Made by a program: the position numbers and the translations under genes
In this document: positions 4,910 to 21,384 of the stretch, piece after piece
Layout of the letters: each line of letters opens with the position of its first letter
How positions within the stretch are numbered: the first letter of the stretch is position 1
NCBI GenBank assembly: GCA_039698055.1
Contig: JBDKTL010000016.1
Coordinates: 32,001 to 96,000, forward strand
Length of the DNA: 64,000 nt
Origin: Methanoregula sp.
Lineage (GTDB): Archaea > Halobacteriota > Methanomicrobia > Methanomicrobiales > Methanospirillaceae
Direction of reading: 5' to 3'
The notes under the pieces: model-generated
Seen by the model: the letters and a program-made list of their open reading frames with translations, nothing else
Told to the model about the DNA's origin: nothing
Database searches by the model: none

Positions 4910-5026
4910 CGGCACAGCCAGGCACCGATGAAAAGTGGTTGGTCAACAGATGGGGAACCGGATATTTTTGCGAAGTTTAGCTGGAATCGGGTAGAATTCA
5001 GAAAGTAAAAGACGGGAAGTGAAATT

Positions 5027-5764
5027 ATGGGACGCATTGAAGGAAGGGTAGCACTTATCAGTGGCGGTGCACGGGGCTTGGGCGCGACCAATGCCCGGGC
5101 CCTGGCGGCAGAAGGAGCGAAGGTCATAATCGGTGACACTCTCGAATCCGAAGGAAAACAGGTTGCAAAAGATCTGGGTCCCCGCGGCTGCTACGTTACG
5201 CTCGATGTTACTGAATCGTCTGACTGGATTGAAGCGGTAGAGATCGCAGAAAATACCTTCGGCCCGGTAAGCATTCTCGTGAATAGCGCAGGGATGGTGA
5301 GCCCTGCACCTTTTGATGAGTGCACAAACCAGCAATTCGGGGAAAGTATCGAATCCAACATTTACGGAACATTCTACGGAATGAAAGCCGTTATTCCCTC
5401 GATGAGAAAGGCTGGGGGTGGATCGATCATCAATATTTCATCCTTTTCCGGGCGGCGCGGGTATCCCATGGCACCGGGCTGCATTGCATCCAAATGGGGC
5501 ATCCGCGGCCTGACGAAATCGGCGGCCCTGGATCTCGCACGGTACCATATCCGGGTAAATTCGATTCACCTTGGACAAATCCTGACATCCGCGACAAGAG
5601 CAAACGATCTGGAGACCGGGCATGTGGCCATGAACCGGGCAGGCATGCCCGAAGAGCTTGCAAATGCCGTGCTCTTTCTTGCAGGCGATGAGTCCAGTTT
5701 CATCACCGGTGCCGAGATAGCAGTTGACGGCGGGGAAAGTGCGGGACTGGCAGACTGGGGATGA
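5027..5764 (+). CDS. short-chain dehydrogenase/reductase, possibly degenerate
   Basis: SGGARGLG Rossmann motif, IRVNSIH, FITGAEIAVDGG; catalytic YxxxK reads CIASK. Confidence 0.85.
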   Translation: MGRIEGRVALISGGARGLGATNARALAAEGAKVIIGDTLESEGKQVAKDLGPRGCYVTLDVTESSDWIEAVEIAENTFGPVSILVNSAGMVSPAPFDECTNQQFGESIESNIYGTFYGMKAVIPSMRKAGGGSIINISSFSGRRGYPMAPGCIASKWGIRGLTKSAALDLARYHIRVNSIHLGQILTSATRANDLETGHVAMNRAGMPEELANAVLFLAGDESSFITGAEIAVDGGESAGLADWG

Positions 5765-5822
5765 GAAAGTCACTCAATTGTGAAATAAAATCATACTCGG
5801 AATAACACGCAAGGACACCTCG

Positions 5823-7361
5823 ATGACAGATGACATAACAGCGTCTATGGCGGCAGTCGAGCGATGGATTGGAAATCCGGTCTCGCGAGCCTGCCTCCGG
5901 TTTGTTGCGACGCATGATGAATGCGGAGACCGGTTGTCGAATGCAATCGATCTCTACCTGGGAAAGGAAAAGCATCTATGTTGGAAATGCAGGCTTGCCG
6001 GAAAGATTGTAGGGTATACCCTGAAGAAAAGCAGCCACCTGTTTGGCGTCAGCGACGCTGACATCAGGAAAGGACTGGCGGAACCGGTCTTCAAACGGGG
6101 GCTCATGAACGTGCTCAATGGCATTGCACAGTACGGGGTCACCCGGCCCCAGATCGTCAATGCACCGTTCCTGGTGGTCTGGGATTTTACCCACCGGTGC
6201 AACCTGCAGTGCAAACACTGCTACCAGGATGCCCAGCGGGCATTGCCGGATGAACTCACCACCGATGAGGCAAAAAAGCTTATCGACCAACTTGCAGACG
6301 TCGGGGTTGTCGTCATAGCATTCTCCGGCGGTGAACCCCTCATGAGAAAGGACTTCTTTGAGATCGCTTCCTACGCCCACGAGCACGATCTCTACGTCGC
6401 CCTTGCCAGCAACGGCACCATGATCACCCCGGAAGTGGCAAAAAGACTGCACGATACCGGCGTGGATTACGTGGAGATCTCCATTGACGGGAAAGATGCC
6501 GCACACCATGATGCCCTGCGGGGAATTGACGGTGCGTTCGAACGAAGCGTTGCCGGGATCCGGAACTGTGTAAAAAACGGGATCTATACCTGCATTGCCA
6601 CGACAGTAACGCAGGATAATTACGACCAGGTACCGGAAATCCACTGTCTCGCGAAAGATCTAGGGGTGACTCGCATGATCTGTTTCAATTTTAGCCCGAC
6701 CGGACGGGGTGTGGAGATGGCTGACAAGGACATAACTCCCTGCCAGCGGGATCATCTCCTCATGTTCATCTTGGTAAAAAACACACGCGGCCAGAAGCCT
6801 GAGGTGCTCTCCACCGCCCCGCAGTTAGCCCGGGTCGCTACCCAGAAAGTGGATTTGGGTATACCGGTGGGGCATTTCTATCTTGGTTCTGAATTGAGCG
6901 GCAGGGCCCGGATGCTTGCGGATTTTATCGGCGGATGCGGTGCCGGCAGGCTTTATTGCAGTGTCGAACCGCAGGGCGATATCCAGCCATGCGTCTTCAT
7001 GCCCATCAAAGTCGGGAATATTCGGAAGACACCGTTCCTTGAGATCTGGCATAATGCCGATGTGCTCAATAAGTTACGGGACCGCGATCTCCTGACCGGT
7101 AACTGCGGATCGTGCACGAACAAGTACATCTGCGGCGGCTGCCGTGCACGGGCGTGGGCGTATTTCCATGACCTGACAAAGCCGGATCCGGGATGCATCA
7201 GGAACACTGCAGTCTGGGATGAAATGATGGGACGGAGCGGGACTGTTACATCTCTGGTTAGTGACGGATTTTTCAATTCGGAGCAATTTGCAAATCAACT
7301 GCAGACGCAACAAAATCGAGCGAGGTATTCCCTAGGTAGGGATGATTACGATGGCCGGTAA
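5823..7361 (+). CDS. radical SAM / SPASM-domain protein
   Basis: CNLQCKHC, FSGGEPL, and SPASM cysteines CGAG..C..PC..CGSC...CGGCRARA..C. Confidence 0.92.
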   Translation: MTDDITASMAAVERWIGNPVSRACLRFVATHDECGDRLSNAIDLYLGKEKHLCWKCRLAGKIVGYTLKKSSHLFGVSDADIRKGLAEPVFKRGLMNVLNGIAQYGVTRPQIVNAPFLVVWDFTHRCNLQCKHCYQDAQRALPDELTTDEAKKLIDQLADVGVVVIAFSGGEPLMRKDFFEIASYAHEHDLYVALASNGTMITPEVAKRLHDTGVDYVEISIDGKDAAHHDALRGIDGAFERSVAGIRNCVKNGIYTCIATTVTQDNYDQVPEIHCLAKDLGVTRMICFNFSPTGRGVEMADKDITPCQRDHLLMFILVKNTRGQKPEVLSTAPQLARVATQKVDLGIPVGHFYLGSELSGRARMLADFIGGCGAGRLYCSVEPQGDIQPCVFMPIKVGNIRKTPFLEIWHNADVLNKLRDRDLLTGNCGSCTNKYICGGCRARAWAYFHDLTKPDPGCIRNTAVWDEMMGRSGTVTSLVSDGFFNSEQFANQLQTQQNRARYSLGRDDYDGR

Positions 7362-7528
7362 CATTGCCGGCGGGGTTGCTCAACCCGGCACGGACGTTCG
7401 GGCCGTACGTGGTGGACGGCCTGCTCGGCGGCGCAGATCTTTGGCAGTACTTCTCAATCTACGTGATCGGGCCGGTTTGCGGAGCGGTTGCTGCCGCGTT
7501 TTTCTACGACGGAATCACGATACAATGA
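7342..7528 (+). pseudogene. frameshifted remnant of an aquaporin 3' end
   Basis: Removing one G near 7375 gives MITMAGNIAGGLLNPARTFGPYVVDGLLGGADLWQYFSIYVIGPVCGAVAAAFFYDGITIQ*, paralogous to 4268-4453. Confidence 0.85.
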
Positions 7529-7656
7529 TGGGGTGCGATTTTTTTTGTATTTCTTACAATAGTAACTTATTTTCACCCCGTTTTTCCCAAACGTTAAAAA
7601 ATCCGTCGTAATACACTGCTTGTGGTTCGTAAAAGAACCAAGGAGCTACCACAACT

Positions 7657-8160
7657 ATGGCAGATTTTGTACAGAGTGCAAACGTGAAGAGCGCGATCCG
7701 CAAGCTTGCGGAACCGATCGCTGATGTTACGGCGTTCAACGCGCTCGTCCAGTCGGTCATCACGTCAAACCCGTTTGCATGTGTCGCATATATGACCGCA
7801 GGGGAGAACAACCCGCCTGTCGAGAAGACCAAGGAAGGGTACACCGCGCGAATCGTCTATCAGGATACTGATGCAAAGACGGTCGGGACCGGTACTCACA
7901 AATTCGACACCCTCGCCGGGTATAACTCCGGGGTGACCGCGCTGCTTGCTGCTGCTGCGGTCAGCACGGCACACGGCGGTTCTGCGGCCCATGACACCGA
8001 CAAGGACACGTTCAGCGCGACCCTCAAGTGTCATGACCCGAACGGCGAACTTTACACGGTGAACTTCTCCCGCGACCAGCTCACCCTTACCTCCTATGAG
8101 GATGATGCAATCCGGACCAAGGTCGAGACCTGGGCGGACTCAGTCCCTGCTCTTGCCTGA
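7657..8160 (+). CDS. hypothetical protein (167 aa, Ala/Thr-rich)
   Basis: Clean ORF with upstream AAGGAG and host-like codon usage, followed by hairpin and T-tract. Confidence 0.8.
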   Translation: MADFVQSANVKSAIRKLAEPIADVTAFNALVQSVITSNPFACVAYMTAGENNPPVEKTKEGYTARIVYQDTDAKTVGTGTHKFDTLAGYNSGVTALLAAAAVSTAHGGSAAHDTDKDTFSATLKCHDPNGELYTVNFSRDQLTLTSYEDDAIRTKVETWADSVPALA

Positions 8161-8179
8161 ACTTTTCTGACGAAACTAC

Positions 8180-8215
8180 CCGGAGGGGAGGCGACCCCCC
8201 GGTCCCTCTCTTTTT
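8180..8215 (+). terminator. GC-rich hairpin plus T-tract after ORF 7657-8160
   Basis: ccggaggggaggcgaccccccgg followed by tccctctcttttt. Confidence 0.4.
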
Positions 8216-8244
8216 GGTTCCCTCGTCGTTAACAGAGGACTCTA

Positions 8245-8409
8245 ATGGATATTGAAACGTTAGGGATTTTGCTGGGAGCCGTGCTTCCGATTTATCCTGT
8301 GTTGTTTACGATCCACCAGAAGATCGGGCAATATGATGAGATCGTCGAGGAGTTCAAGAGACTCCGGACGGAACACGAAAGTTACAAGGAGAAATACCAT
8401 GGAACCTGA
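8245..8409 (+). CDS. small single-pass membrane protein (54 aa), absent from the ORF track
   Basis: MDIETLGILLGAVLPIYPVLFTIHQKIGQYDEIVEEFKRLRTEHESYKEKYHGT; GAGG upstream; overlaps the next start. Confidence 0.6.
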   Translation: MDIETLGILLGAVLPIYPVLFTIHQKIGQYDEIVEEFKRLRTEHESYKEKYHGT

Positions 8410-8881
8410 AAAAGCAGTGCAGCCGGTCGCGACGGTGACCGGCCTGTACCGGGGAAAGTTTGGCGGCCTTGAGCCGCTCACGCCGGATAAGCCGCTGACC
8501 CCGGAAGAAGTGCGTCGCAATCCCATTTTTTACGAGCTTGACCTTCACCCGGAACAGGGTGACGAGAACCTGATTATTGACTTGATTTACGACAACCTCG
8601 CACCCATCCGGTTGCAGGACCTGTACCGGGGAACCGATATTCCGCGGAACATCCGGTTCTGGCCGGACTGGTTCGACATTCCTCCCTACGAGGAGATGCA
8701 CGACATCGACGGCCGCCGGGTTTACCCGCGGGCCCCCGGGATCCACACGGTCCAGATCCGGACCGGTCGCCGGAAGTGGGCACAGATGGGCCGGGTCCGG
8801 GATTTCAGCCCGGAGAATGGCGGGTACACGAGCCCGGTCTTCGAGGTCCTGATCGCCAAAGGCGTGAATGCCAATGATTGA
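8399..8881 (+). CDS. hypothetical protein (160 aa)
   Basis: ATG 8399 preceded by AAGGAG; overlaps both neighbours. Confidence 0.7.
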   Translation: MEPEKAVQPVATVTGLYRGKFGGLEPLTPDKPLTPEEVRRNPIFYELDLHPEQGDENLIIDLIYDNLAPIRLQDLYRGTDIPRNIRFWPDWFDIPPYEEMHDIDGRRVYPRAPGIHTVQIRTGRRKWAQMGRVRDFSPENGGYTSPVFEVLIAKGVNAND

Positions 8882-9326
8882 CGGTTCGGCGGTTCACGCG
8901 TTCTGGTGCGGGATCCTGCACACGATCGGTGCGTTTGACCTGTCCGCGCTCACCGATGCGGAGAAGGTCGATATCGCCGGGCGGAGAACCTGGTTCTGGC
9001 TCGGCGAAGTGAGCGTGGCCGCGGTTCTGGCTGGGTTCATCGCGATCCCTGCGGGGATCTGGTTTGCCGGCCGGACCGAGATCTCCCTTGCATTCATCGC
9101 GGCTGCGGTCCTGTTCCTGCCGCTCTTTGTCTTCCTGCCGAAGCTGATCCAGCGCGGGATGAATGCGGACACCGATGCGGCGATTGACGCGTTCGGGAAG
9201 AATGAGCAGGTGAAGAAAATCTTCTGGGCGCTGTTCGTCGCGATGGCGGGACTGGTGCTGGCCCGGGTACTGGACCCGGCGACAGCTCAGCAGATTATCA
9301 CGCTCGTCACGTCGGCGGTGCCGTGA
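8868..9326 (+). CDS. hypothetical membrane protein (about 3 TM)
   Basis: Hydrophobic segments VSVAAVLAGFIAIPAGIWF, ISLAFIAAAVLFLPLFVFL, IFWALFVAMAGLVLA. Confidence 0.7.
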   Translation: MPMIDGSAVHAFWCGILHTIGAFDLSALTDAEKVDIAGRRTWFWLGEVSVAAVLAGFIAIPAGIWFAGRTEISLAFIAAAVLFLPLFVFLPKLIQRGMNADTDAAIDAFGKNEQVKKIFWALFVAMAGLVLARVLDPATAQQIITLVTSAVP

Positions 9327-9538
9327 GGTTCTGGTTTTTCACCCGGAAAACGATACTGGTTTGGGTTGGGATGGTGATATCGTAGTGTCCCTTCGGGGAT
9401 AACTGGGTAGACGGGTGGGGAGAGATTTCCTCGCCCGGATCTTTTTTGGATTTTTCGGTTTCTCATTTGTGATTGGCATTACCATTTGAAAAGTTGTAAG
9501 TAGATATGAGATAGAATCACATTGAAGGAGGATTCTAT

Positions 9539-11479
9539 TTGGGAAAGCCCTTTCAATCTGAATTGAATAAAATCCCAGATACCATAGTTTGGGCGTTGAA
9601 TGAAAAAATAGAGGAAATTGTTTCGTTTATCGAGTCCTCTTATGATTCACCCCTCTACATAATTGGTTCAGGCGGCTCATTAACCGCTGCTCATTTGGTG
9701 AAATTACTCCACGAAGAGCTTGGAGCTTTTGCGCGAGTAATCACACCATATGAACTGCTGACAATGGACGCATCGTTGCGAAATTCAAGCATCCTGATGA
9801 TAACTGCAGGAGGTCGCAATCCCGATATTCTTTTTTCTTTTAAACATGCTGCAAAATCAGAGCCCAAGAATCTACTGGCCGTTTGTATGCGACCTAATAG
9901 CCCGCTTAAGGAAATAGAGAATACATATAATTTCGCGAAAGTTATTGATTTCCACATCCCTTCTGGAAAAGATGGTTTTTTGGCAACAAATTCGTTGGTT
10001 GCTTTTTGTATGCTCTTTTCTCGTGCTTATAGCGAAGTCTTGCAACAAAATACCACTTTCGATACTGGAATTACCCGTGACATTGAGATCTTCCCAGATA
10101 CCTCTTTTATGAATCAACTAAAAGTTTTATCGACGTTTAGCGTTCTTTATGGAAAGTGGAGTCTTCCAGCTGCTATCGACTTAGAATCAAAATTTACTGA
10201 AGCCGCTCTTGGAAATGTTCAGATTGCGGATTTTAGGAATTTTGCTCACGGACGACATTATTGGTTAGCGGGAAAAGGCGAACAATCTGGAATTGTCGCA
10301 ATTTATACTCTTGATGAAGAAAAAATTGTCAACAAAACATTGGACCTCATTCCAAAAGAAATTCCCGTCTTTAGAATATCTTCAGATTTTTTGGGCTCAA
10401 AGGGTGCGATTCAGTTATTGATTAAAAATTATTATTTTACAAATCTCGTTGCAGCGTATCAGGGAGTTGATCCGGGTTGTCCGACAGTTCCCATGTTCGG
10501 ACGTAAAATATATCGATTAAATGTCAATCCAATAATTCCCAAAGAAAAAATTCCTACGGGGATTAGTCATCAAGAATACGTCTCGATTAAAAGAAAAGTC
10601 GATTATATCACGTTGAAAGATCAGGAAATTCTCTCTATTTGGGTTAAAGCATACCGCGATTTTCTGAAAAAAATTAAATTATGTAAGTTTGGCTCAATCA
10701 TACTCGACTATGATGGTACACTTTCTGCAAAAACCGACAGAGAACTAAACCTTCCCACAGCGATATGCTCTGCTTTAACTCGATTATTGGAAAATGGTGT
10801 GATAATCGGTATTGCTACAGGGAGAGGCAAATCAGTTAGAGAGGAGATGCAAAAAGCAATTCCTCGTGAATTCTGGAATTCTATTGTCATAGGATATTAT
10901 AATGGTGCAGATATTAGTGATCTCTCCGATGAGGCACATCCAGATCTGGGAATTGAAACAGACCCTATTTTACTAAAATTAGAAGCCGTGTTAAATCAGG
11001 ATCCTCTCTTAACAAAATATTCCAAATGGGATCCTCGTCCCCATCAAATCTCAATATTTCTAAGAAAGGCTCATTTCAGGAATACCGTCAAATCCAAACT
11101 GGCTGATATCCTATCCCAGAATGACTTTGTAAGCTTAAAGTTTTTCGAATCTTCACATTCTTTCGATATAGTCACTGATGGTGTATCTAAGAAAAATCTA
11201 TTTTCTTTCGTTGAAAATAAAGCAGAGAGTAAAGGGAGACCTAAGGAAATTCTTTGTATCGGAGATAAAGGCAAGATCCCGGGAAATGACTTCGAGCTTT
11301 TACAGTCACCTCTTGCTCTGAGCGTCGATGAAGTATCTCATTGCTTCGAGAATTGTTGGAATTTAGCCCCTGAAGGATATCGGGGACCTCAGGCAACATT
11401 GGAGTATCTCGAATCAATAAAAACGCACGATAACTATATGAAATTTAATTTTCATATCGAGGGGAATATAAATGAATGA
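9539..11479 (+). CDS. tandem SIS (sugar isomerase) domains fused to a HAD-IIB phosphatase/mutase
   Basis: SIS: IIGSGGSLTAA, TAGGRNPD, GFLATNSL, LESKFTEAA..NFAHGRH; HAD: LDYDGTL, ATGRG, GVSK, IGDKGKIPGND; TTG start after GAAGGAG. Confidence 0.85.
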   Translation: MGKPFQSELNKIPDTIVWALNEKIEEIVSFIESSYDSPLYIIGSGGSLTAAHLVKLLHEELGAFARVITPYELLTMDASLRNSSILMITAGGRNPDILFSFKHAAKSEPKNLLAVCMRPNSPLKEIENTYNFAKVIDFHIPSGKDGFLATNSLVAFCMLFSRAYSEVLQQNTTFDTGITRDIEIFPDTSFMNQLKVLSTFSVLYGKWSLPAAIDLESKFTEAALGNVQIADFRNFAHGRHYWLAGKGEQSGIVAIYTLDEEKIVNKTLDLIPKEIPVFRISSDFLGSKGAIQLLIKNYYFTNLVAAYQGVDPGCPTVPMFGRKIYRLNVNPIIPKEKIPTGISHQEYVSIKRKVDYITLKDQEILSIWVKAYRDFLKKIKLCKFGSIILDYDGTLSAKTDRELNLPTAICSALTRLLENGVIIGIATGRGKSVREEMQKAIPREFWNSIVIGYYNGADISDLSDEAHPDLGIETDPILLKLEAVLNQDPLLTKYSKWDPRPHQISIFLRKAHFRNTVKSKLADILSQNDFVSLKFFESSHSFDIVTDGVSKKNLFSFVENKAESKGRPKEILCIGDKGKIPGNDFELLQSPLALSVDEVSHCFENCWNLAPEGYRGPQATLEYLESIKTHDNYMKFNFHIEGNINE

Positions 11480-12581
11480 GGATCTTGCCAAAAAAATTCT
11501 CAGAACATCTCTTGACTGGACGACAGATGAGATAAGAGATGAGATGTCAACTATTCAATTAATGGCCAGTTATAAGTATGATAATTATCAGCGTTTTTTT
11601 CCCGGTATGCGTTTTATTGAGAGCCTTTCTCAGTGGTTAAATCAATTCAAAACAATTGAGGAAAGGAAAGTAGCATATGAATTCATTAAAAAACGGTTGA
11701 TATTTTTCTCTGAAAGAGAAATCGAGCAACTCGTTTCAATGTCATATCCCGATCTGATAAAACCCATCCTTTATGAAAAAACGGCGTCAAATTTACATTG
11801 CTCTGAATATCAAATAAAGAAAATTTTTGAGAGTACCGAATTCAAAATTCTTCAAAGAAAATCTCTATTTTTAGGTTTAAGTGATGGGGCCCATATGGAT
11901 TTATTCAGGAGAATGAATCGTGAAGTGGGGTTGAAACACGATCAAATTAGTATTGGTTATGACATTAATGACACAAAACGTATTGAGCTTCTCGAAGAAC
12001 TCAAGAACGACCTAGAGAAAATTCCAGGATGTTCCACCTCGCAAGAAAATCTTCTTTTTAAAAATATTTTTTTAATTGATGATTTTTCAGCAAGTGGAAA
12101 AAGTTACTTTCACATTAAGAATGGCGAAATAAAGGGAAAAGTTGCTAAGGTAATGGATCAAATCAATAATCCAGATAGTGAGATCTCAAAAATAATCGAT
12201 AAATCTGATTTATTGGTTTGTGTTATTCTATATATAGCAACTGATACCAGCCTCAACTATCTGAGGCCGTTACTGAATGAAATTGCTGAAGCGAAAAAAT
12301 TTAAAATAAAAATTGTCTGCATTCAGAAACTAGATGATCAAACAAAAATTCAAAATGGCGAGGCTTTTTTGAAATTGATAGAAAACGATGCTTATTATGA
12401 TTCGGATGTGGAATCGAATGCAACTATGGTGGGCGGCACTAAAAGCGTAAAATTGGGCTTTGCCAATTGTGCTTTACCTGTGATATTGTATCACAATACT
12501 CCCAACGATTCTGTCGCAATTCTATGGCTGCATGAATATTTGAAGATAAAGGGGCTTTTTCCAAGAGTCACTCGCCATTAG
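11472..12581 (+). CDS. phosphoribosyltransferase-like protein (PRTase-CE-like conflict effector)
   Basis: PRPP-loop-like IFLIDDFSASGKS, FLGLSDG, C-terminal LGF..CALPVILYHNTPNDSVAILW..LFPR. Confidence 0.75.
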   Translation: MNEDLAKKILRTSLDWTTDEIRDEMSTIQLMASYKYDNYQRFFPGMRFIESLSQWLNQFKTIEERKVAYEFIKKRLIFFSEREIEQLVSMSYPDLIKPILYEKTASNLHCSEYQIKKIFESTEFKILQRKSLFLGLSDGAHMDLFRRMNREVGLKHDQISIGYDINDTKRIELLEELKNDLEKIPGCSTSQENLLFKNIFLIDDFSASGKSYFHIKNGEIKGKVAKVMDQINNPDSEISKIIDKSDLLVCVILYIATDTSLNYLRPLLNEIAEAKKFKIKIVCIQKLDDQTKIQNGEAFLKLIENDAYYDSDVESNATMVGGTKSVKLGFANCALPVILYHNTPNDSVAILWLHEYLKIKGLFPRVTRH

Positions 12582-12589
12582 GATAGATC

Positions 12590-14467
12590 ATGATCGAACC
12601 ACGAAATCCGTTTATGATACAAACTTCGGAACAAATCGATTCCGAAAGAATATTTCTCCGATTATTCTCTCCTGGCGTACTGTCTTTATTAACAAATAAG
12701 GAACTTTGGGACAGAGTCAGTTTAATACTAAGCTCCCCCGGGGGGGGGAAAAGTTCCCTGATACGCCTTTTTACTCCGGGATCTCTTCTTGAACTCCATA
12801 ACCACCGAACTCATGAATTATTTAAAGAACTTTATCAAAGGATGAATCAATTGGGTGTTATTAATGACAATGGGCCTCAGATTTTAGGAATTTCGATATC
12901 CTGCGTCAGAAACTACGATTCTCTCGAAGACTTAAATCTCGAAGACGTTGATAAAAAGAGACTTTTTTTTGCATTACTAGATTCGAGGATTATCATATCG
13001 GCATTACGAGGATTAGTGGAGTTAAATCATTTGAAATTCGATGAAGATTTGAAAGCCATTACTTATATTTTACCTAACGATCTCCCATTGCCGACTGATT
13101 TTCCACAGAGGGGAAATGGACACGATTTATTTACCTGGGCTCAGAAGGCCGAAGAAAATGTGTATTCTATCATTGACAGTTTCGGCCCGATAAAGAAAGA
13201 ATCGTTGAAGGGTCATGATAGATTGATCAGTGCATTTGTTCTCAAACCAGATTATTTCAAATGCAATTCTAATTCTATTCCTCCACGAACTGTCATAATG
13301 TTGGACGATTGTCATAAATTGACCTCCACCCAACGAAAATCACTTTACGAAATTATTGACCAAAGACCTCCGATTGGTATCTGGATTGCGGAAAGATTTG
13401 ATCATTTTTCAATTGATCAATTAATCAATAAAGGGGCCTACCATGGTCGAGAAATTAATTTTATTGAATTGGAGGATTTTTGGAGCCAATCAAGCAAATT
13501 TGAAAAAATAGCGGAGAATATCGCTGATAAAAGAGCCCGATTTGCATCAACTGTAGATATTCAATCATTTGCCTCAAGATTACAATTTGAATGTGGCGAC
13601 TCTGAACAAAAACACCTTGAAGAAATTTGTAAAAAAATCGAAGAAAAAATTTTAAATAAAGGCAAAATTTCAGAAAAGTATATCGAGAGAATTGAATCTT
13701 TGCGAAATTCTCAGGAAAGACCCTTTGAAAGAGCAATATCTTGGAGATCGCTTGAGATCTTGATTGATCGGGATTTGAAGAAAGAACAAAAATTGATCTC
13801 TGATTATTCGGATGATCTCATCATCCCAATCGAAGAAGAATCTTTGGTTGATCGAGAAAATTCCGATGTAAGAAATGCCGCGGAATTATTCCTATCGAAG
13901 GACTATAAACTACCTTACTATTATGGCATGTCTCGTCTCGTCAAGGTGTCATCCTCAAATATATCCCAATTCTTGTGGATTAGTGGGAATATTTTTGAAG
14001 AAATTCTTGCTCAAAATTTAATGGATCCCTCAAAACTTATTGGCCTTAAACCTCAAGAAAAAATTATTAAAAAAATTATTGATGAGCGATGGAATCAACT
14101 TCCATACCGAGTTCAGTATGGTCGGGAGATCCAAAAATTCCTGACCTCGGTTGGAAAATTTTGTGCAAATGAGACCTATAAAGCGAATGCCTGGAATGCG
14201 CCAGGTGTAACAGGTATCGCAATACTAATGTCCGATGTAAAAAGACTGAATGAAGAAAAAAAGTACAAAAAACTGAATACAATCCTGAGAGAATGCATCG
14301 CAAATAAATTGTTAGAGGCGAGTCCTGGGAAAAAATGCAAAAATAAGGAATGGATGGTTCTATATTTCAACCGAATGTATTGCGTTTATTTTAATTTACC
14401 TCTGCAATACAGTGGAAAATTCAAGGAGAAAAAACTGGATGATGTTCTTAGCTGGCTAGAAAATTAA
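12590..14467 (+). CDS. P-loop ATPase (ORC/CDC6- or STAND-like)
   Basis: N-terminal RNPF, Walker A SSPGGGKSS, Walker B VIMLDD, C-terminal YYYG...SSSNISQFL. Confidence 0.75.
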   Translation: MIEPRNPFMIQTSEQIDSERIFLRLFSPGVLSLLTNKELWDRVSLILSSPGGGKSSLIRLFTPGSLLELHNHRTHELFKELYQRMNQLGVINDNGPQILGISISCVRNYDSLEDLNLEDVDKKRLFFALLDSRIIISALRGLVELNHLKFDEDLKAITYILPNDLPLPTDFPQRGNGHDLFTWAQKAEENVYSIIDSFGPIKKESLKGHDRLISAFVLKPDYFKCNSNSIPPRTVIMLDDCHKLTSTQRKSLYEIIDQRPPIGIWIAERFDHFSIDQLINKGAYHGREINFIELEDFWSQSSKFEKIAENIADKRARFASTVDIQSFASRLQFECGDSEQKHLEEICKKIEEKILNKGKISEKYIERIESLRNSQERPFERAISWRSLEILIDRDLKKEQKLISDYSDDLIIPIEEESLVDRENSDVRNAAELFLSKDYKLPYYYGMSRLVKVSSSNISQFLWISGNIFEEILAQNLMDPSKLIGLKPQEKIIKKIIDERWNQLPYRVQYGREIQKFLTSVGKFCANETYKANAWNAPGVTGIAILMSDVKRLNEEKKYKKLNTILRECIANKLLEASPGKKCKNKEWMVLYFNRMYCVYFNLPLQYSGKFKEKKLDDVLSWLEN

Positions 14468-14473
14468 ATTTTA

Positions 14474-15637
14474 ATGGATGGGGAAGAAATGGATGAGATT
14501 ATAAACGAAATGCGATGGGAAAATTATTTTTTACGTCGAGGAATGGATTTTAAAAAGTACTGGAAAGAATTCCTCGCCTCAAAACAAAGAGATGTCTGTT
14601 ATATTCTTGGTCTTGGATTTGATCCCCGTATGTGTTCCGCCATTGATTATATCATAAAGTGCGATGGGGAGGGTATTAGAGATTGTTATCTGATAAAGTT
14701 TAATGAAGGGGAAACATCGCAATCGAAAAATTATGAGCCTGAAATCGCAGAGAATGAAAAAAAATTAACTAAAATAATGTCAGATCGCGGCAGAATAATT
14801 CCTAAAGAAATTGAGATGATATCCTCAGATCGACGGAGAATTGGGGGGAGAGCAATAATTAAATGTTTAAATGATGTTGATTTCTCAAAATATTCTGATA
14901 TTATAGTCGATATTAGTGCCCTACCACGTCCATTATATTTTCCAATTATCAGAAAATTCCTGCACGAATTTGATGAAAAACGGAAAAATGGTCAGCGAAA
15001 ATTCAATCTTCACATAATCATTGTGGAAAATCCCAAGTTGGATTCATTGATTAAAGCATTGGGTGTAGAGGACAAAGCAGATTATATCGTTGGTTTCAGA
15101 GGACGAGTTGAATTGGAATCCACCGGAAATCTACCGACGGTCTGGATTCCGATTTTAGGTGAGGGGAAAGCAATACAATTAGACAGAATATATACACTGG
15201 TTAGACCCCAAGAAATATGTCCGGTTCTACCATTTCCAGCGCTAAATCCCCGAAGGGGAGATGATATCATCATTGAATATAGGGAAATGTTATTCGACAA
15301 CCTGCGAATAGATCCGGTTAATATCCTCTATGCCTCCGAACAAAATCCTTTTGAAGTCTATCGGAAAATCGTTCGGACGGTATCACAATATCATAGAACT
15401 TTAAATGTACTAGGTGGATGCAAAATCGTCGTATCAATATTGTCAAGTAAATTGCTTTCGATGGGAGCCCTTCTTGCAGTTTATGATATATCTGAAGATC
15501 TTCAGCCTAAAATCCCGATCGCGATCGCTCATGTGGAAAGTCAGGGATATGAGCTAGATCCATTCGATAAAGACGAAATTATGAAACATGAAGAGCTATA
15601 TTCTATGTGGCTAGCCGGCGAATGCTATGACGACTGA
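14474..15637 (+). CDS. hypothetical protein, possible tandem CARF-like/Rossmann domains
   Basis: YILGLGFDPR..IIVDISALPR and WIPILGEG..VSILSSKLLSMGALLA suggest two alpha/beta units. Confidence 0.55.
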   Translation: MDGEEMDEIINEMRWENYFLRRGMDFKKYWKEFLASKQRDVCYILGLGFDPRMCSAIDYIIKCDGEGIRDCYLIKFNEGETSQSKNYEPEIAENEKKLTKIMSDRGRIIPKEIEMISSDRRRIGGRAIIKCLNDVDFSKYSDIIVDISALPRPLYFPIIRKFLHEFDEKRKNGQRKFNLHIIIVENPKLDSLIKALGVEDKADYIVGFRGRVELESTGNLPTVWIPILGEGKAIQLDRIYTLVRPQEICPVLPFPALNPRRGDDIIIEYREMLFDNLRIDPVNILYASEQNPFEVYRKIVRTVSQYHRTLNVLGGCKIVVSILSSKLLSMGALLAVYDISEDLQPKIPIAIAHVESQGYELDPFDKDEIMKHEELYSMWLAGECYDD

Positions 15638-16718
15638 CGAATTAAATTTTTTTGAAAATAAGGACCCAAAACCAATAGCTACCGGAACCGGACTCATAGC
15701 ATTGGATGTAATAATTAATGGCCATAATAGAAATGAGCCTTATTACATGACCGGAGGATCATGTGGGAATGTTTTAATAATTCTCTCGTATTTTGGGTGG
15801 CACACATATCCTCTTGGCCGGTTTAAAGAGGATAATTTCTCAAAATTTATTATCGGCGATTTGAAAAAGTGGGGCGTAGATACCTCATATCTTAAATTTG
15901 ACGATAAGGCAAGTACACCTGTTATTATCGAAAAAGTCAGACAAAAGGAAAATGGCGAATCAACCCATGCCTTCAGCTTCTTTTGTCCTGAATGTAATTC
16001 GTTTTTACCGAGATATCGACCCGTCACAATAAAACAAGTCGAGTCTATTCTGGATAATTTACCTACATCCAGTGTTTGCTATATTGATCGAGTATCCGGT
16101 GGGACCCTTGAATATGCAAAATCTTGTAAAAATAAAGGAGCTTTGATCTTCTTTGAACCCACAAAAATTGATGATAATAGCAATTTTCGTAAAATTCTTG
16201 AAATTTGTGATGTTTTAAAATATTCAAATGAAATTTGCATTACCGATCCAAATATTGTGCGCGATAGCTACGTTCCGTTGAAAATCGAAACGCTAGGTTC
16301 ATCCGGATTATTGTTTAGTTTTAACAACGGCCTCTCTAGAAAAAGAAACGAAAAATGGCAAAAAATGAGGGCGTTTCCTATCAAAAACTTCGTTGATGCA
16401 GCGGGTGCAGGTGATTGGTGTAGCGCAGGACTAATTCATTTTTTAAATATGAAAAAAATAACGGACATCAATCAATTAGATGAAAAAACGTTAAAAACCG
16501 CATTAAATTTTGGACAAGCTCTTGCGGCGGCAAATTGCAGATTTTTTGGAGCACGAGGTAGTATGTATGCACTCTCTAAAGATAACTTTCACAAATTCGT
16601 TAATGACATTCTTAAAAAGAAGGATATTTCGACCTCTAATATGCCCCCTTTGCAATTAAAACGACCGAAAAAAAACAAAGGTTGTTGTCCAATTTGCAAT
16701 GAAAAGAACCGTGTGTAA
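15627..16718 (+). CDS. PfkB/ribokinase-family kinase with CxxC motifs
   Basis: GLIALD, GGSCGNV, DAAGAGD anion hole, FGQALAAANC; inserted CPEC and terminal CCPIC. Confidence 0.85.
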   Translation: MTTDELNFFENKDPKPIATGTGLIALDVIINGHNRNEPYYMTGGSCGNVLIILSYFGWHTYPLGRFKEDNFSKFIIGDLKKWGVDTSYLKFDDKASTPVIIEKVRQKENGESTHAFSFFCPECNSFLPRYRPVTIKQVESILDNLPTSSVCYIDRVSGGTLEYAKSCKNKGALIFFEPTKIDDNSNFRKILEICDVLKYSNEICITDPNIVRDSYVPLKIETLGSSGLLFSFNNGLSRKRNEKWQKMRAFPIKNFVDAAGAGDWCSAGLIHFLNMKKITDINQLDEKTLKTALNFGQALAAANCRFFGARGSMYALSKDNFHKFVNDILKKKDISTSNMPPLQLKRPKKNKGCCPICNEKNRV

Positions 16719-17066
16719 TAATTTTGAATCTCTTTTTCTATTCCTATTATTTCGGAATGCATCGGCACTACGGGCGAATGATAAGACCGTGACGGACTTA
16801 GTTAGTGATCACAATTGGATTATGGTGGCTTCGAAGCAGATTATCGTCAGCCAATTTTCATGGGGTCCGGGGTCCCATGTTTCCTGCAGAGCGTGATCAT
16901 GCGGCTGGTCCCGGTCCATCCCTCTCTTCCCAAATCTAATATTCTCCCAGACACTATACTGAATCAGAAATTGAGCTGCATCCGCCCCGGAACTTCCATT
17001 TTGGGAAAGAAACCGGATTTCGGCTCGGTACAAAAACGTGGAAAATCCCTTACATAAGGTTCGGAC

Positions 17067-18530
17067 ATGACAGAACAGATGAATATCCGGGAACTCGTTG
17101 ATACTCTGCGACGTAAGGACACCGAAGAGGAATGGTTTGAGTTCAAAGTCGATTACGCCGAACCTCAAAAGATCGGTGAATATCTGTCGGCGTTGAGCAA
17201 TTCAGCGGCATTGTCCCACGAGGAGTACGGCTATCTTGTCTACGGTCTGGATGATTCGCATCACAGGATCGTCGGCACCGGGTTTCAGCCAAAAAAGGCA
17301 AAAGGAAAAGGGAACGAGGATCTCGAGCCATGGCTGACCCGCCTTCTGGATCCCCGTGTTGATTGTGCGATTTGGGAAGAGGAGATAAATGGGGCCCGGG
17401 TTGTAGTTTTCCGGGTTGCGGCAGCACGGGAACGCCCCGTCAGGTTTTCCGGCGTTGCGCATATCCGTGTCGGTTCCAACAACCATAAACTGGCAGATTA
17501 TCCGGAAAAAGAAAGAAAATTGTGGAGTATTATTCATTCGGTACCGTTTGAGGAGGGTATAGCCCTTACCGGACAGTCAAGCGACGATATCTTACAAAAG
17601 ATCGATTATCCGAAATTCTTCGAGCTCATGAAAATCCCCCTCCCTGATAACCGGGCGGGGATACTCAGCAGGCTTGAGGAAGAGAAAATTATCCAGAAAA
17701 CAAAGGATCATTACTATTCTATAACCAATTTAGGTGCAATTCTCTTCTCAAAAAACTTCGAGGATTTCCCACCACTCACCCGCAAATCCCTGAGAATTGT
17801 TGTGTACGATGGGGACGGCCGCCTGAATGCAAAGAAAGAGCATATCGTCAAGAGCGGTTATGCAACATCGTTCGAATCGACTATCGACTGGATATTTGAT
17901 CAGGTCCCTTCCAATGAGGTAATCAAGGATGCATTGCGCGTCGAGCGAAAGATGTACCCGAAAGTTACGATCCGTGAAGTTGTTGCAAATGCGTTGATCC
18001 ACCAGGATTTTTCCATAACCGGTGCCGGGCCGATGGTTGAGGTGTTTTCGAGAAGGATGGAAATTTCGAATCCCGGCAAACCGTTAATCAGTCCGGACCG
18101 GTTTATTGATCATCCTCCCCGATCGCGGAACGAGAAACTGGCGTCGGTGATGCGCCGCGTAAATATTTGTGAAGAGCGGGGTAGCGGGATTGATCGGGCG
18201 ATCGATTGCATAGAGGTATTTCAGTTACCCGCGCCGGAATTTCTTGACGACAATGATTTCATGCGCATTACGTTGTTCGGACACCAGAATATCGGCGAAA
18301 TGGGAAAAGCAGATAAGATTAGGGCTTGCTACCAGCACTGCTGCCTGAGATGGGTGTGCCGGGACTATATGACAAACGCAACTCTCCGGAAGCGGCTGGG
18401 GATTGACGACCTGAATTATCCCATGGCTTCACGGATTATCAAGGACACCATGGACCAGGGCTTGATCCGGTTGTATGATCCGGAAAACAAATCGAACAGG
18501 ACCCGGAAGTACATCCCGTTCTGGTCATAA
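17067..18530 (+). CDS. AlbA_2/Schlafen-domain protein with HATPase-like and C-terminal wHTH regions
   Basis: EEEWFEFK..YLSALSNS..GYLVYG; IREVVANALIHQD; ISNPG; RNEKLA..CEERGSG; terminal YIPFW. Confidence 0.88.
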   Translation: MTEQMNIRELVDTLRRKDTEEEWFEFKVDYAEPQKIGEYLSALSNSAALSHEEYGYLVYGLDDSHHRIVGTGFQPKKAKGKGNEDLEPWLTRLLDPRVDCAIWEEEINGARVVVFRVAAARERPVRFSGVAHIRVGSNNHKLADYPEKERKLWSIIHSVPFEEGIALTGQSSDDILQKIDYPKFFELMKIPLPDNRAGILSRLEEEKIIQKTKDHYYSITNLGAILFSKNFEDFPPLTRKSLRIVVYDGDGRLNAKKEHIVKSGYATSFESTIDWIFDQVPSNEVIKDALRVERKMYPKVTIREVVANALIHQDFSITGAGPMVEVFSRRMEISNPGKPLISPDRFIDHPPRSRNEKLASVMRRVNICEERGSGIDRAIDCIEVFQLPAPEFLDDNDFMRITLFGHQNIGEMGKADKIRACYQHCCLRWVCRDYMTNATLRKRLGIDDLNYPMASRIIKDTMDQGLIRLYDPENKSNRTRKYIPFWS

Positions 18531-18730
18531 ATTTGGGCGTAGCAAAATATCATCGGCCAATGTAACTGGCATGTGCATATGCACAAAGAAAAAGGGCAGA
18601 TTGAGGGGGTTACCCCGTTTGCTCGTCAATTTGATGTAACAGGTTATGTAACGGGCATGTAACTGAAAGGGATAATCTCCCGGACCGCCCACCCTGGAGT
18701 CCCGCCCACCAACCGAGGGCGGGAACCATT

Positions 18731-19145
18731 GTGTCCGGTTGACACGCAGACGCTCGGTCATGTTCACTCGTCCTCGCTGATGCTCCGGCTCGCTTCACAT
18801 CACCTCGCTGTTTCTTTCGGTTGATTGCTGGGATGAGGACGCCCCTGGCTTGTCGCGCTGCTCCGGCGCCAGCGGCTGCCCCGGCCCGCTCCTCACACCA
18901 TGCTCCGCATCGTGTTCGTCGCTGTTGATGCGAAAACGCAGACGCTCAGTGACTCGCTCGCACGACGCACAGGGGGCTCGGACTCGCCGCTGATGCGGCT
19001 CCTTACCTTCGCGCCCCTGTCGCGGTGCTCGCTCGGGCCGCTGGGCCCCGGACCTTTCTCCCGCTTCGCTCCTCCCTCCCTTGAAAAGGAGGGCAGTCAT
19101 TGCGATAGGAACGGAGGAGGTTTCAGGGCCGGGCGGGAGGACAAA
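18731..19145 (+). repeat. left arm of a ~410-bp imperfect inverted repeat
   Basis: 18881-18929 matches the reverse complement of 21605-21653 at 48/49 nt; similarity continues on both sides. Confidence 0.9.
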
Positions 19146-19428
19146 GCGACGGTTACCGGACGCATCAGCGGACGGTCGCTCGCTTTGTCGGGCGGGTCCA
19201 ACCGAAGCGATCGCGTACCAACAGGAAACTAAAGAGGGCGGGTCATGGCCACACGGCGCGGTTACGGGACGCATCAGCGGCCTGTCGCGCTGTGTGCCTG
19301 GGCGGGCCTTGCGAAAAATAAAAATTTAATTCTGCGCAATTGCCTTATTTCGCAAATCGGACAACGCACCGCTTTTACTTTCACCCTGCGCACGCCGATG
19401 TACTATATGCTCTAACGTCGATAGATGT

Positions 19429-19824
19429 ATGGTGAAAAACACCATGAGGCCAACAACAAAAACAGATGTGAAGTTCGAGCACATAGGGGCAGCCCGCCTC
19501 TATCAGAGCTCGGTCCGTATCGATGTCAAGACAATGCAGGCAGTCATTCCCACCAGTGAAGTACACAAACTTGAACAGCACTGGCCTGCGGCAGTCTATG
19601 ACATATCCGATGTTATGAAGAACGCGGACGCGGCCCCGGTCGGGAAGGCATGGATCACCCGGTCCGGTAAAGCCGTGATGATCTCCATCAACGATGTGCA
19701 GTATGTCTCCCCTCTCGCACAGGTAAAGGGGATGCTCAAGGGCGAGCGGAAATATGCAAACGTCTCAACCATGTGCACCGTGCAGCCCATGACCACAAAC
19801 CAGCCGGCAGGGGCGACAGCATGA
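19429..19824 (+). CDS. hypothetical protein with internal two-fold repeat
   Basis: GAARLYQSSVRIDV..IPTSEV versus GKAWITRSGKAVMISI..SPLAQV; ATGA-coupled to ardC. Confidence 0.7.
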   Translation: MVKNTMRPTTKTDVKFEHIGAARLYQSSVRIDVKTMQAVIPTSEVHKLEQHWPAAVYDISDVMKNADAAPVGKAWITRSGKAVMISINDVQYVSPLAQVKGMLKGERKYANVSTMCTVQPMTTNQPAGATA

Positions 19825-20732
19825 AGGCCGCTGACGTAAAGGCGCAAATAAACGAGAGGATCATAAAATCTCTCGCGGAAGGAAAGATCCCCTGGCTGAA
19901 GCCGTGGACCGAGAACGGGCCGCGCAACCTCTTCAGCGGCAGGGCATATACCGGGCTGAACCGGCTGATCCTCGGGCTCAGTCCCTATCCTCTCCCCTTT
20001 TGGGCAACCTACCGCCAGTATCTCGCAGCAGGGCTACAGGTCCAGTTTGGTGAGCACGGCACCGGGATTATCTACGCAGGCCGGACCGTGAAGACCGACA
20101 CGGAAAGGGACGAGAACGGCGAGGAGACCGAGCGCAGGAAACAGATCCGTTTCCTGAAAGCCTTCGTTGTTTTCAACATCGCCCAAACCGATTACAAGGA
20201 GAAGGGCTACAAGATCCCGGACCAGAAAGAGAACCCGCACCTTCTCGGATGCGATACAATCATTCAGGACTACACGGGCCGGGAGTCGATAAGGATCGCA
20301 GGAGGAAGCCGAGCCGCATACTCCCCGCAGATGGATATTATCACCTGCCCGGAGATCGGCCAGTTCAGGACTTCCGAGCACTATTATGCGACGATGTTTC
20401 ATGAGTGCGTTCACTCCACCGGGCCCCGGCTCGACCGGTTCAAGCGGACCGATCCGGTCTGCTTCGGGTCCGACACCTACGGGCGCGAGGAACTGGTAGC
20501 CGAGATCGGGAGTGCATACCTGGCCGCACTCACCGGGATTGATTCAACGGCGATCATTCAGAATCAGGCCGCCTACCTCCAGAACTGGGCGACGGCGATT
20601 AAGGCCGATGCGGATCTTGTGATGTATGCCGCAGGCAGGGCAGAGAAGGCAGCGGACTTTATGATCGGGGCTTCGGCCCCGGACCCTGCCAGCGCTGCAG
20701 GAACAGAAATGGCGGGAGGGGTGGCAGCATGA
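19821..20732 (+). CDS. ardC: ArdC-like antirestriction protein (ssDNA-binding N-domain plus zincin-like metallopeptidase)
   Basis: IPWLKPW, YTGLN, WATYRQ, VFNIAQ, HECVHSTG (HExxH), YGREELVAEIGS. Confidence 0.9.
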   Translation: MKAADVKAQINERIIKSLAEGKIPWLKPWTENGPRNLFSGRAYTGLNRLILGLSPYPLPFWATYRQYLAAGLQVQFGEHGTGIIYAGRTVKTDTERDENGEETERRKQIRFLKAFVVFNIAQTDYKEKGYKIPDQKENPHLLGCDTIIQDYTGRESIRIAGGSRAAYSPQMDIITCPEIGQFRTSEHYYATMFHECVHSTGPRLDRFKRTDPVCFGSDTYGREELVAEIGSAYLAALTGIDSTAIIQNQAAYLQNWATAIKADADLVMYAAGRAEKAADFMIGASAPDPASAAGTEMAGGVAA

Positions 20733-20995
20733 CCCCGACCATTTACGACGCCATGCCGATCAAAGTGCTTGAAGAACTCGAACGCATCGAGATTGCGATC
20801 CCTGCAATGGAGCGCCGGGCATTCATGCTGCAAGCCGATGCGCAGGACCTCCGCTTGAGACATGATGAGATCATCAAGTCATGGACAGACAAGGCTGCAT
20901 GGGAGGGGCTCGACAACCTGATCGCAGAACGGCACCGGCTTGATATGATCGCGTGGCACTGCGATCCGCTGCCGAGCGGGATCCGGACGGAGTAG
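20729..20995 (+). CDS. hypothetical helical protein (88 aa)
   Basis: ATGA overlap with the ardC stop and upstream GGAGG. Confidence 0.6.
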   Translation: MTPTIYDAMPIKVLEELERIEIAIPAMERRAFMLQADAQDLRLRHDEIIKSWTDKAAWEGLDNLIAERHRLDMIAWHCDPLPSGIRTE

Positions 20996-21384
20996 ATCCT
21001 GTGCTCAGCTTGCGGGAACTCCGGGAGTACCGGAAAAAACGATCAACCATTTTTGGGATGTGGAAAAGTCTGATCTGGTGGCTGCACAGGACAAAGAAAA
21101 GAATTCTTTTGCTCCGGTAAAAACGGTGGCCCGGACAGGGACACCATGAGGCCAATCACGAGCCCTGCCTGGGTTGGTACAATATCGACTCCTGGCATTA
21201 TCTTTCTTGGCAAAGGTTGGCCCACCCCGAAGGCTCACGCGACGGGCCCGCCCGGCGGTCCCGTATCCGGCTCGCCTTCTTCCCGCCCGGACCGCTACCC
21301 GGTGGCTGTCCTGTTGAGATATCCTGATCTTCCTGGGCCCGCCCGATGCTCACGCGACACGGCGATGGTCGCCGTGTTCCGGCT

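Follow-up and report, generated by a model that had tools for sequence, protein, structure and literature searches.

We have identified a compact cassette of five co-oriented genes (g1 to g5) in the archaeon Methanoregula sp. (assembly GCA_039698055.1), located in a stretch of 64,000 nucleotides (nt) of contig JBDKTL010000016.1 (positions 32,001 to 96,000 of the forward strand), which was analyzed as a whole and is referred to here as the window. The genes encode a SIS-HAD fusion (g1), a PRTase-CE protein (g2), an ORC-CDC6-like AAA+ ATPase (g3), a CARF-like protein (g4), and a PfkB kinase (g5), and a first-pass annotation, made from the sequence alone, had singled them out as a candidate defence system. 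Our analysis suggests, with a probability of roughly 55%, that the cassette is a modular and probably antiviral system of the abortive-infection type, in which the ATPase and the CARF-like protein would form the core and the PRTase would act as an effector depleting phosphoribosyl pyrophosphate (PRPP) or nucleotides. The conflict-system character proposed by that annotation receives strong comparative support from related loci in which TIR, SIR2, HD-CE, or calcineurin-like effectors occupy the position of the PRTase.

Among 401 genomes of the phylum, 19 have a match to the ATPase family of g3 (PF24389) that exceeds its cut-off. Eight PF24389 loci that do not belong to the cassette (L063-L070), all from archaeal genomes of the same phylum, served as a set of sister systems. 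The gene downstream of the ATPase is a homologue of g4 in all eight. The slot ahead of the ATPase is filled by a separate gene in four cases, encoding PRTase-CE (L063, L064), HD-CE (PF24391; L067), or a calcineurin-like phosphoesterase (Metallophos; L065), and by a domain fused to the N-terminus of the ATPase in three, namely TIR (TIR_2; L066), SIR2 (SIR2_2; L069), or a protein kinase (Pkinase; L070); in L068, a Mutator transposase stands in front of the ATPase. This comparison indicates that the ATPase and the CARF-like protein are a constant pair and that the slot ahead of the ATPase is an exchangeable effector position, and the N-terminal fusions imply that the effector works together with the ATPase. 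TIR and SIR2 belong to the classical effector domains of immunity. The trios of CE effector, ORC-CDC6-like ATPase, and CARF-like protein (PF24389 with PF24390 or PF24391) resemble the cassette in having the same families as g2 and g3, a homologue of g4, and the same gene order; the "CE" effector names reportedly go back to Nicastro, Burroughs, Iyer, and Aravind (NAR 2023).

The conservation of the complete cassette was studied in two scans. The first, with one genome per species and g4 as anchor, yielded 31 loci whose gene content was determined by tblastn. All five genes are full-length and in the order of the window in 19 of these loci; six are cut by contig ends (L003, L006, L012, L013, L025, L031) and six look degraded (L004, L017, L026, L028, L029, L032). 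The order and strand of whatever genes remain are kept in 31 of 31. Carriers belong to the Chloroflexota, Bathyarchaeota, Methanotrichaceae, Methanoperedens, Planctomycetota, Verrucomicrobiota, Bacteroidota, Acidobacteriota, Nitrospira, Krumholzibacteriia, and Binatia, and include the cultured Tautonia sociabilis and Ginsengibacter hankyongi. The second scan, made independently in metagenomes with g5 as anchor, kept the best 80 of 487 relatives, and its counts are biased towards the core family because these 80 are the closest relatives. Of the 35 metagenome loci in which g5 is preceded by 7 kb or more, 33 hold the five genes in order, the two exceptions being a locus with a split g2 (L139) and a remnant (L151), and g4 lies directly upstream of g5 in 57 of the 58 loci with at least 1250 nt in front of g5. 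Among the kept metagenome loci, queries with HD-CE, calcineurin-like, TIR-ATPase, and SIR2-ATPase proteins gave no match, and kinases of the g5 type accompanied no version of the system other than the one with the PRTase.

Since the same order recurs in dozens of unrelated genomes, the co-occurrence of the five genes goes beyond chance. In most loci, the starts and stops of adjacent genes overlap at the majority of the junctions. Across 17 loci, pairwise sequence identities correlate among the five proteins with Pearson coefficients of 0.93-0.99 and Spearman coefficients of 0.67-0.93 (values that kinship inflates), as fits co-inheritance of the five genes, and the ratio of nonsynonymous to synonymous substitution rates (dN/dS) is 0.08-0.22 for every gene in the two locus pairs with unsaturated dS. 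As a unit, the five genes move between genomes, diverge, and experience purifying selection; the conserved gene order that the first-pass annotation had proposed as a check was recovered in the form of a self-contained mobile unit. Two metagenome loci, L090 (3936-4653) and L091 (3554-4272), have about 700 nt between g1 and g2, which overlap or nearly touch elsewhere, and this spacer may be an inserted small gene.

The cassette is rare, being present in 2 of 400 other genomes of its own phylum and in 1 of 400 other Bacteroidota (0.25-0.5% of the genomes sampled). One of the two carriers in its own phylum belongs to the same genus; its copy shows only 37-44% identity, occupies a different locus, and has a GC content of 0.32-0.36 compared with 0.49-0.63 in its flanks. 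A quick maximum-likelihood tree of g2, g3, and g4 combined placed the Bacteroidota copies in one clade (support 100), and the four archaeal copies on separate deep branches among the Chloroflexota, Verrucomicrobiota, Planctomycetota, and Acidobacteriota. In this tree, the same-genus copy is not the sister of the copy in the window. The cassette appears to have been acquired horizontally here, and its carriers seem to have acquired it independently of each other.

In the window, the five genes form a tight array, with overlaps of 8 nt (g1/g2) and 11 nt (g4/g5) and gaps of 8 nt (g2-g3) and 6 nt (g3-g4), in agreement with the first-pass description of five co-oriented open reading frames (ORFs) that overlap or lie less than 10 nt apart. 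Their AT-richness, also described there, is pronounced: the GC content in 1-kb windows is 0.348-0.391 over 10001-17000, as against 0.535-0.582 over 5001-9000 and 0.547-0.590 over 18001-22000, or 35-39% against about 55%. Upstream, a multi-copy element matches other genomes (20 genomes of the same genus) only up to about position 9442, and a terminator-like hairpin at 9412-9437 closes this segment. On the other side, a 7789-nt contig from run X4, which belongs to another study, is about 92-94% identical to the window and covers 9209-11980 and 12052-16731, but its further 254 nt past 16731 are unlike the window. Because this contig diverges there, the right edge of the cassette is placed about 13 nt after the g5 stop codon. 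Runs X3 and X5-X18 contained only small shares of the stretch. No direct or inverted repeats stand out at the flanks of the cassette, no tRNA was found in the window, and scans for sigma-70 promoters and terminators stayed at chance level except for the hairpin. Taken together, the five genes appear to be one horizontally mobile operon of about 7.3 kb. In an RNA library, probably from the source study, five contigs with 100% identity fall inside g3-g5, two of which run across the g3/g4 and g4/g5 junctions; the contigs are a weak sign that the cassette is expressed. The run X4 variant (about 93% identical) differs in g2 by a diverged stretch of the same length (71 nt, 11980-12052) and by a 12-nt insertion (at 12362), both in the indel-rich linker of the PRTase, which looks locally fast-evolving.

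To characterize the surroundings of the cassette, the three nearest ORFs on each side were called by a simple longest-ORF rule; 27 loci contributed 103 ORFs with a minimum length of 100 amino acids (aa). No recurrent sixth gene was found among them, and the flanks vary between loci, with integrases, transposases, and a relaxase that fit a mobile unit. The commonest Pfam families were Glycos_transf_2 (3), DUF488 (3), Phage_integrase (2), and rve (2), and IstB, relaxase, HipA, MmeI_Mtase, and ABC_tran were matched once each. The first-pass annotation had named sugar-catabolic operons with transporters as a context that would speak against a defence role, and this context did not appear. That the cassette is an ordinary transferred operon for sugar or nucleoside salvage with no role in conflict is hardly credible: although three of the five proteins come from common metabolic enzyme families, the flanks hold no recurrent transporter or catabolic partner, the distribution is rare and patchy with independent acquisitions, and there is a strict association with a PRTase of the effector type and with an ORC-CDC6-like ATPase and a CARF-like protein that have relatives with TIR or SIR2.

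The sister loci differ from the cassette in their accompanying genes. A DNA methyltransferase (C5, Dam-like, or N6/N4) is adjacent in six of the eight, and a HhH-GPD glycosylase follows the CARF-like gene in L063 and L064, whereas the cassette has SIS-HAD and PfkB enzymes instead. The two PRTase versions can be written as methyltransferase-PRTase-ATPase-CARF-glycosylase for the sister loci and SIS/HAD-PRTase-ATPase-CARF-PfkB for this cassette, and the parallel gene order implies that sugar-phosphate enzymes sit in the places of DNA-modification enzymes. These parallel positions, with a glycosylase in the place of the fifth gene in two loci, favour a modification-dependent system akin to restriction-modification, in which SIS-HAD and PfkB, possibly with the PRTase, would mark the host DNA or nucleotide pool and the ATPase and CARF-like protein would fire if the mark were absent or altered. 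A precedent is the PUA-Calcineurin-CE-HAD system, whose trigger, according to an excerpt of the preprint 10.64898/2026.01.15.699771, is a modified nucleotide derived from the host methylome; in the same excerpt, that system resembles the cassette in combining a nucleotide-targeting effector with a HAD phosphatase, but it uses a PUA sensor and a calcineurin-CE effector, and its description there includes no ATPase, kinase, or SIS domain. We regard such a marking role as improbable, since neither the cassette nor its immediate surroundings encode a glycosyltransferase, a methyltransferase, or a modification enzyme that binds DNA, MmeI_Mtase was matched by only 1 of the 103 flank ORFs, and sugar-phosphate enzymes have no known route to DNA marking on their own.

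The two proteins of the presumed core were characterized by profile comparisons and by modelling. The product of g3 matches the ORC-CDC6-like ATPase family PF24389 (E 1.3e-19; 70.8 bits, cut-off 27) over profile positions 1-566 of 571, and its Walker A (G51-x-G53-K54) and Walker B (D239-D240) residues are invariant in 21 sequences; no relative was found at E <=1 among PDB sequences. It is presumed to be the switch of the system. The product of g4 matches the PADLOC model CARF6 (PDLC01910) with an E value of 1.8e-121 and carries the invariant motifs D146-x-S148-x-x-P151-R152 and E289-QNPFEVY-296. By hhalign, the g4 family is related to the third-gene family of the sister systems (98%, E 2.4e-13), and the C-terminal half of the latter to the CARF domain of Card1 (93.8%, E 1.7e-7), so that the link between g4 and CARF appears to be an indirect one. 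The family comprises about 855 clusters among 1.84 billion representatives, 396 of them at E <=1e-30, and among the best 150 of these clusters the relatives are mostly stand-alone proteins of about 360-390 aa, with some shorter fragments and one of 559 aa. From these comparisons, g4 is presumably a CARF-like protein made of two Rossmann-like halves, has no effector domain fused to it, and would act as the sensor and as the partner of the ATPase. A tandem duplication within g4 was considered, but the comparison of its N-terminal and C-terminal halves was not significant in the g4 family and weak in the sister family (19.5%, E 1.2e-3). The g4 and sister CARF-like profiles found no relative among PDB sequences, and g4 matched only "hypothetical" clusters in the ESM Atlas. 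A scan of viral contigs with the g4 profile gave no relative, a result that is neutral with respect to a defence role.

A model of the complex between g3 (residues 1-625) and g4 (residues 13-387) obtained a score of 0.65, with 0.65, 0.69, and 0.61 in three runs and 0.00 for the best of three controls. Of 80 solved complexes, 58 attained the mark of this model, as did 2 of 110 mismatched pairs; these counts are only rough because alignments of our own were used. At least 72% of the contacts are common to the runs, the partner pLDDT is at least 84, and the predicted interface joins the N-terminal half of g4 to the region of g3 between Walker A and Walker B. The predicted contact residues are 103-116, 132-140, and 181-200 in g3 and 117-133 and 195-219 in g4. 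Neither chain has a solved relative by sequence. The model supports the view that the ATPase binds the CARF-like protein.

The CARF-like character of g4 raises the question of whether the cassette is an accessory of a type III CRISPR-Cas system, in which g4 would sense cyclic oligoadenylate made by Cas10. The type III systems in which this messenger acts on CARF proteins (Csm6/Csx1, Card1/Can2, CARF-HAD) would resemble the cassette in their CARF-type Rossmann sensor, to judge from the indirect profile links to Card1, and in the coupling of this sensor to a non-specific metabolic or nucleolytic output. The CARF6 models stem from a census of CRISPR-linked CARF proteins, and CARF-fused HAD phosphatases have been reported as type III effectors (work cited in the excerpt of preprint 10.64898/2026.01.15.699771). 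On the other hand, the CARF-like protein of the cassette has no fused effector, no match to Cas10 (Csm1/Cmr2) was found in the genome that carries it, which is 93% complete, and in five other carriers none exceeded the cut-off, two of these carriers giving weak sub-threshold matches. No type III cas family is among the top families of the 103 flank ORFs, where a single Cas4-like match was obtained. A CRISPR accessory is very unlikely on this evidence, and the cassette appears to be largely independent of type III CRISPR.

The presumed effector, g2, matches PRTase-CE (PF24390; E 4.1e-22; 79.7 bits, cut-off 27) over profile positions 2-253 of 253. Its motifs D203-D204-F205-x-x-S208-G209, which reads D203-D204-F-S-A-S208-G209 in the window, and H341-N342-x-P344-N345 are invariant in 23 sequences, and N346 is present in at least 90% of them. 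The profile found no relative among PDB sequences. In PADLOC, g2 matches the PRTase_III-A models (E 1.7e-15), which according to the retron literature describe retron effectors. In an excerpt of PMC12746101, triggering of the PRTase effector of Retron-Eco11 lowers PRPP by about 50% and is accompanied by abortive infection, and the retron-PRTase motif Gx14PNNxP given there is the counterpart of the P-N-N element of g2. By analogy, g2 may be an effector that consumes PRPP or nucleotides. The type III-A retron and the cassette share, as far as that excerpt goes, the PRTase-CE family, the acidic pair of the PRPP loop, and the P-N-N motif, but the cassette has neither a reverse transcriptase nor a recognized msDNA nor a winged helix-turn-helix lobe at the C-terminus. 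A retron reverse transcriptase was found neither among the five ORFs nor in the 25 commonest families of the 103 flank ORFs, and a non-coding RNA was not searched for. Control in the cassette would come from the ATPase and the CARF-like protein, and not from retron parts.

The outer genes encode enzymes that would act on sugar phosphates or related small molecules. The HAD part of g1 matches Hydrolase_3 (E 4.2e-8) and also S6PP in Pfam, and NCBIfam HAD-SF-IIB (TIGR01484) with 43.5 bits, just over the cut-off of 41.8. Compared with PDB sequences, the g1 family profile matched double-SIS isomerases of the GlmS/NagB-II kind (2aml at 5.6e-5, 8eol, and 3hba; 5.6e-5 to 1e-4) and HAD-IIB sugar-phosphate phosphatases (3niw, 1ymq). 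The SIS phosphate loop G43-x-G45-G46-S47 and the HAD motifs I-IV (D390, D392, T394, S432, K551, D576, D584) are invariant in 21 sequences, the latter reading D390-x-D392-G-T and G575-D576...N583-D584. The N-terminus MGKPF, read from a TTG start, agrees with the consensus of the orthologues. The product of g5 matches PfkB (PF00294; E 8.6e-17; 61.8 bits, cut-off 25.8), and its profile is closest, among solved structures, to ketohexokinase 2hlz (3.7e-12) and to fructokinases. In 26 sequences, D27, G43-G44, N48, D257, G260, and G262 are invariant and D263 is present in at least 90%; the catalytic motif reads D257-A-A-G260-A-G262-D263 in the window. The substrate of g5 is not assignable because all NCBIfam equivalogs remain far under their cut-offs. 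The motifs named in the first-pass annotation (HAD, PRTase, Walker A/B, and PfkB) are present in all cases and are invariant or nearly so across orthologues. Most copies of g5 outside the Bacteroidota have two pairs of cysteines, one (CxxC) near residue 119 and the other near the C-terminus, and these are replaced in the Bacteroidota clade; they may represent a dispensable zinc ribbon.

Catalytic motifs that are intact in all four enzyme families could also belong to a biosynthetic cassette, in which PfkB, SIS, PRTase, and HAD would form a short pathway leading from a sugar phosphate to an unusual nucleoside or nucleotide, either an antimetabolite or a signal, and the ATPase and the CARF-like protein would regulate the process or sense its product. 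The nearest relatives of g5 and of the SIS part of g1 fit such a route. SIS, PfkB, and HAD enzymes act in the ADP-heptose route (GmhA, HldA, and GmhB), FrlB/FrlD being a further example, and a PRTase homologue and a HAD phosphatase take part in angustmycin synthesis. The PRTases and HAD enzymes of the Ter system, as far as the excerpted text of PMC7824862 goes, have been proposed to make a nucleoside-like signal. The Ter module and the SIS/PfkB/HAD sugar-phosphate routes thus offer the same combination of superfamilies, which suggests, by analogy, phosphorylation, isomerization, and dephosphorylation of a sugar phosphate or nucleoside; the cassette differs from them in that its matches fall far under the equivalog cut-offs and its context is mobile and conflict-like. 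A biosynthetic role seems unlikely to us, because the PRTase slot of the sister systems holds degradative or NAD-consuming effectors (HD-CE, calcineurin-like, TIR, SIR2), g2 has a P-N-N motif of the retron-effector type, and the five genes include no pyrophosphokinase or nucleotidyltransferase to activate a sugar.

In the mechanism that we propose for an abortive-infection system, the CARF-like protein g4 would bind a small nucleotide-like or phosphosugar-like ligand, and this signal, transmitted through the ATPase g3, would turn on the PRTase-CE protein g2. The latter would use up PRPP or nucleotides and starve the invader, as the PRTase effector of Retron-Eco11 is reported to do. More tentatively, SIS-HAD and PfkB might constitute an auxiliary small-molecule module in which the kinase makes or converts the ligand and the phosphatase/isomerase removes it; alternatively, they might break down the sugar-phosphate product of the PRTase and so drive its reaction forward. 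Both genes accompany this PRTase version alone. A bolder version, which we consider possible but doubtful, is a CARF pathway without a cyclase, in which PfkB and SIS-HAD would write a messenger, a phosphorylated sugar or nucleoside that may derive from infection-specific metabolites, and erase it again, and the tandem CARF-like sensor on the ATPase would read this messenger, upon which the ATPase would unleash the depletion of PRPP or nucleotides. A cycle in which a modified nucleotide or sugar phosphate is made, sensed, and reset, as suggested by the first-pass annotation, goes in the same direction and is likewise tentative.

Several observations weigh against an antiviral, nucleotide-depleting system of this kind. 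The PRTase-CE loci among the sister systems do without SIS-HAD and PfkB, an absence that also speaks against a biosynthetic role, and the association with methyltransferases could mean that the ATPase and CARF-like pair may read DNA modification and not a free ligand. The PRTase-CE protein might be biosynthetic here and not degradative. The SIS assignment of g1 is sub-threshold in Pfam (14.2 bits, cut-off 25). For g4, no Pfam family, and so no CARF model, matched at E <=1, the direct hhalign comparison of its family with the CARF domains of Card1 was not significant (probability 0.85%), and the CARF fold is assigned from profiles only. PADLOC families in the 103 flank ORFs are scattered, with one or two ORFs each (type IIG restriction-modification, AbiEi, SoFic, DrmMI/DrmD, PDC-M45, and mads). 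The contigs of the RNA library could be DNA carry-over, and no experimentally tested member of the family was found in the literature searched.

With regard to named defence systems, PADLOC gave no full match, as had been expected: only g2 (PRTase_III-A) and g4 (CARF6) matched, g1 and g3 had no match at E <=1, and g5 matched Cas8b only, at chance level (E 0.0098). The combination of SIS/HAD, PRTase, ORC/CDC6, CARF, and PfkB was not found in the literature searched, which did not cover the likeliest papers. Two papers were set aside, since the Cdc6 passages in PMC10853773 concern other systems and "SIS" in PMC6546367 abbreviates Sulfolobus islandicus. Because curated Pfam families exist for the PRTase-CE and ATPase core, this core is of a known, computationally predicted kind, and there is a real chance that the five-gene arrangement has also been catalogued already as a prediction. 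The first-pass interpretation is upheld for the mobile, conserved unit and its conflict logic, and is not upheld for the reset cycle or for the label "undescribed", which fails for the core and is not confirmed for the five-gene arrangement.

The coordinates of the cassette and of its named neighbours are listed in Table 1. The AlbA_2 and ArdC genes are located where the first-pass annotation had reported them. Segments with multiple copies in the genus bracket the cassette on both sides (7570-9442 and 18731-21407); among the matches listed for 20 genomes of the same genus (with 240 weaker matches beyond them), none covers 9443-18730. The upstream segment contains three ORFs (7657-8160, 8333-8881, and 8868-9326) with no Pfam or PHROG match, occurs in many copies of 70-84% identity in nearly all of the 20 genomes and on other contigs of the Methanoregula sp. 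assembly, and stops at the terminator-like hairpin just 5' of the cassette; it could represent a family of mobile or repeated genes. PHROGs gave no match for the small ORFs around the cassette. The ArdC segment (18731-21802) has inverted repeats of about 410 nt at its ends (18731-19141 and 21389-21802, 78% identity) and is multi-copy in the genus with up to 87% identity, features that suggest a transposable or integrative element. Farther away, the stretches 22001-23000 (GC content 0.43) and 48001-50000 (0.40-0.42) are also low in GC compared with about 0.55 and may have been acquired. Upstream of the cassette, genes for a short-chain dehydrogenase and for a radical SAM/SPASM enzyme occupy 5027-7361, and an ORF of 89 aa (7342-7611) comes next; this may be a peptide-maturation pair and is unrelated to the cassette.

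Table 1. Features of the five-gene cassette and its neighbours (positions in the window; residues for domains)
Feature	Position	Strand	Remarks
Low-GC cassette leader	9443..9538	+	GGAGG 8 nt 5' of the g1 TTG; left edge approximate
g1	9539-11479	+	646 aa, TTG start
g1 domains	residues ~1-335; ~385-600		N-terminal, double-SIS phosphosugar-isomerase-like; C-terminal, HAD-IIB phosphatase
g2	11472-12581	+	369 aa
g3	12590-14467	+	625 aa
g4	14474-15637	+	387 aa
g5	15627-16718	+	363 aa
Right edge of mobile unit	16719..16731	+	approximate; from run X4 contig
AlbA_2+HATPase_c_4 gene	17067-18530		adjoins cassette
ArdC gene	19773-20732		near cassette

If the cassette is a defence system, CARF-like sensors would work outside CRISPR and CBASS, without an oligonucleotide cyclase, and one chassis of ATPase and sensor would be wired to at least six effector chemistries. 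Sugar-phosphate enzymes, and DNA methyltransferases in the sister systems, could then supply or edit the input of this chassis. It would also be a rare case of one defence cassette moving among methanogen-related archaea, Bathyarchaeota, and at least seven bacterial phyla. As the catalytic residues have all been mapped, these hypotheses are directly testable, and the sister family of effector, ATPase, and CARF-like protein deserves a separate study. Should the pathway without a cyclase prove true, it would represent a second messenger written by a kinase and a phosphatase in the immunity of both archaea and bacteria, and it would suggest that the sensor of the sister systems reads nucleotides derived from the methylome.

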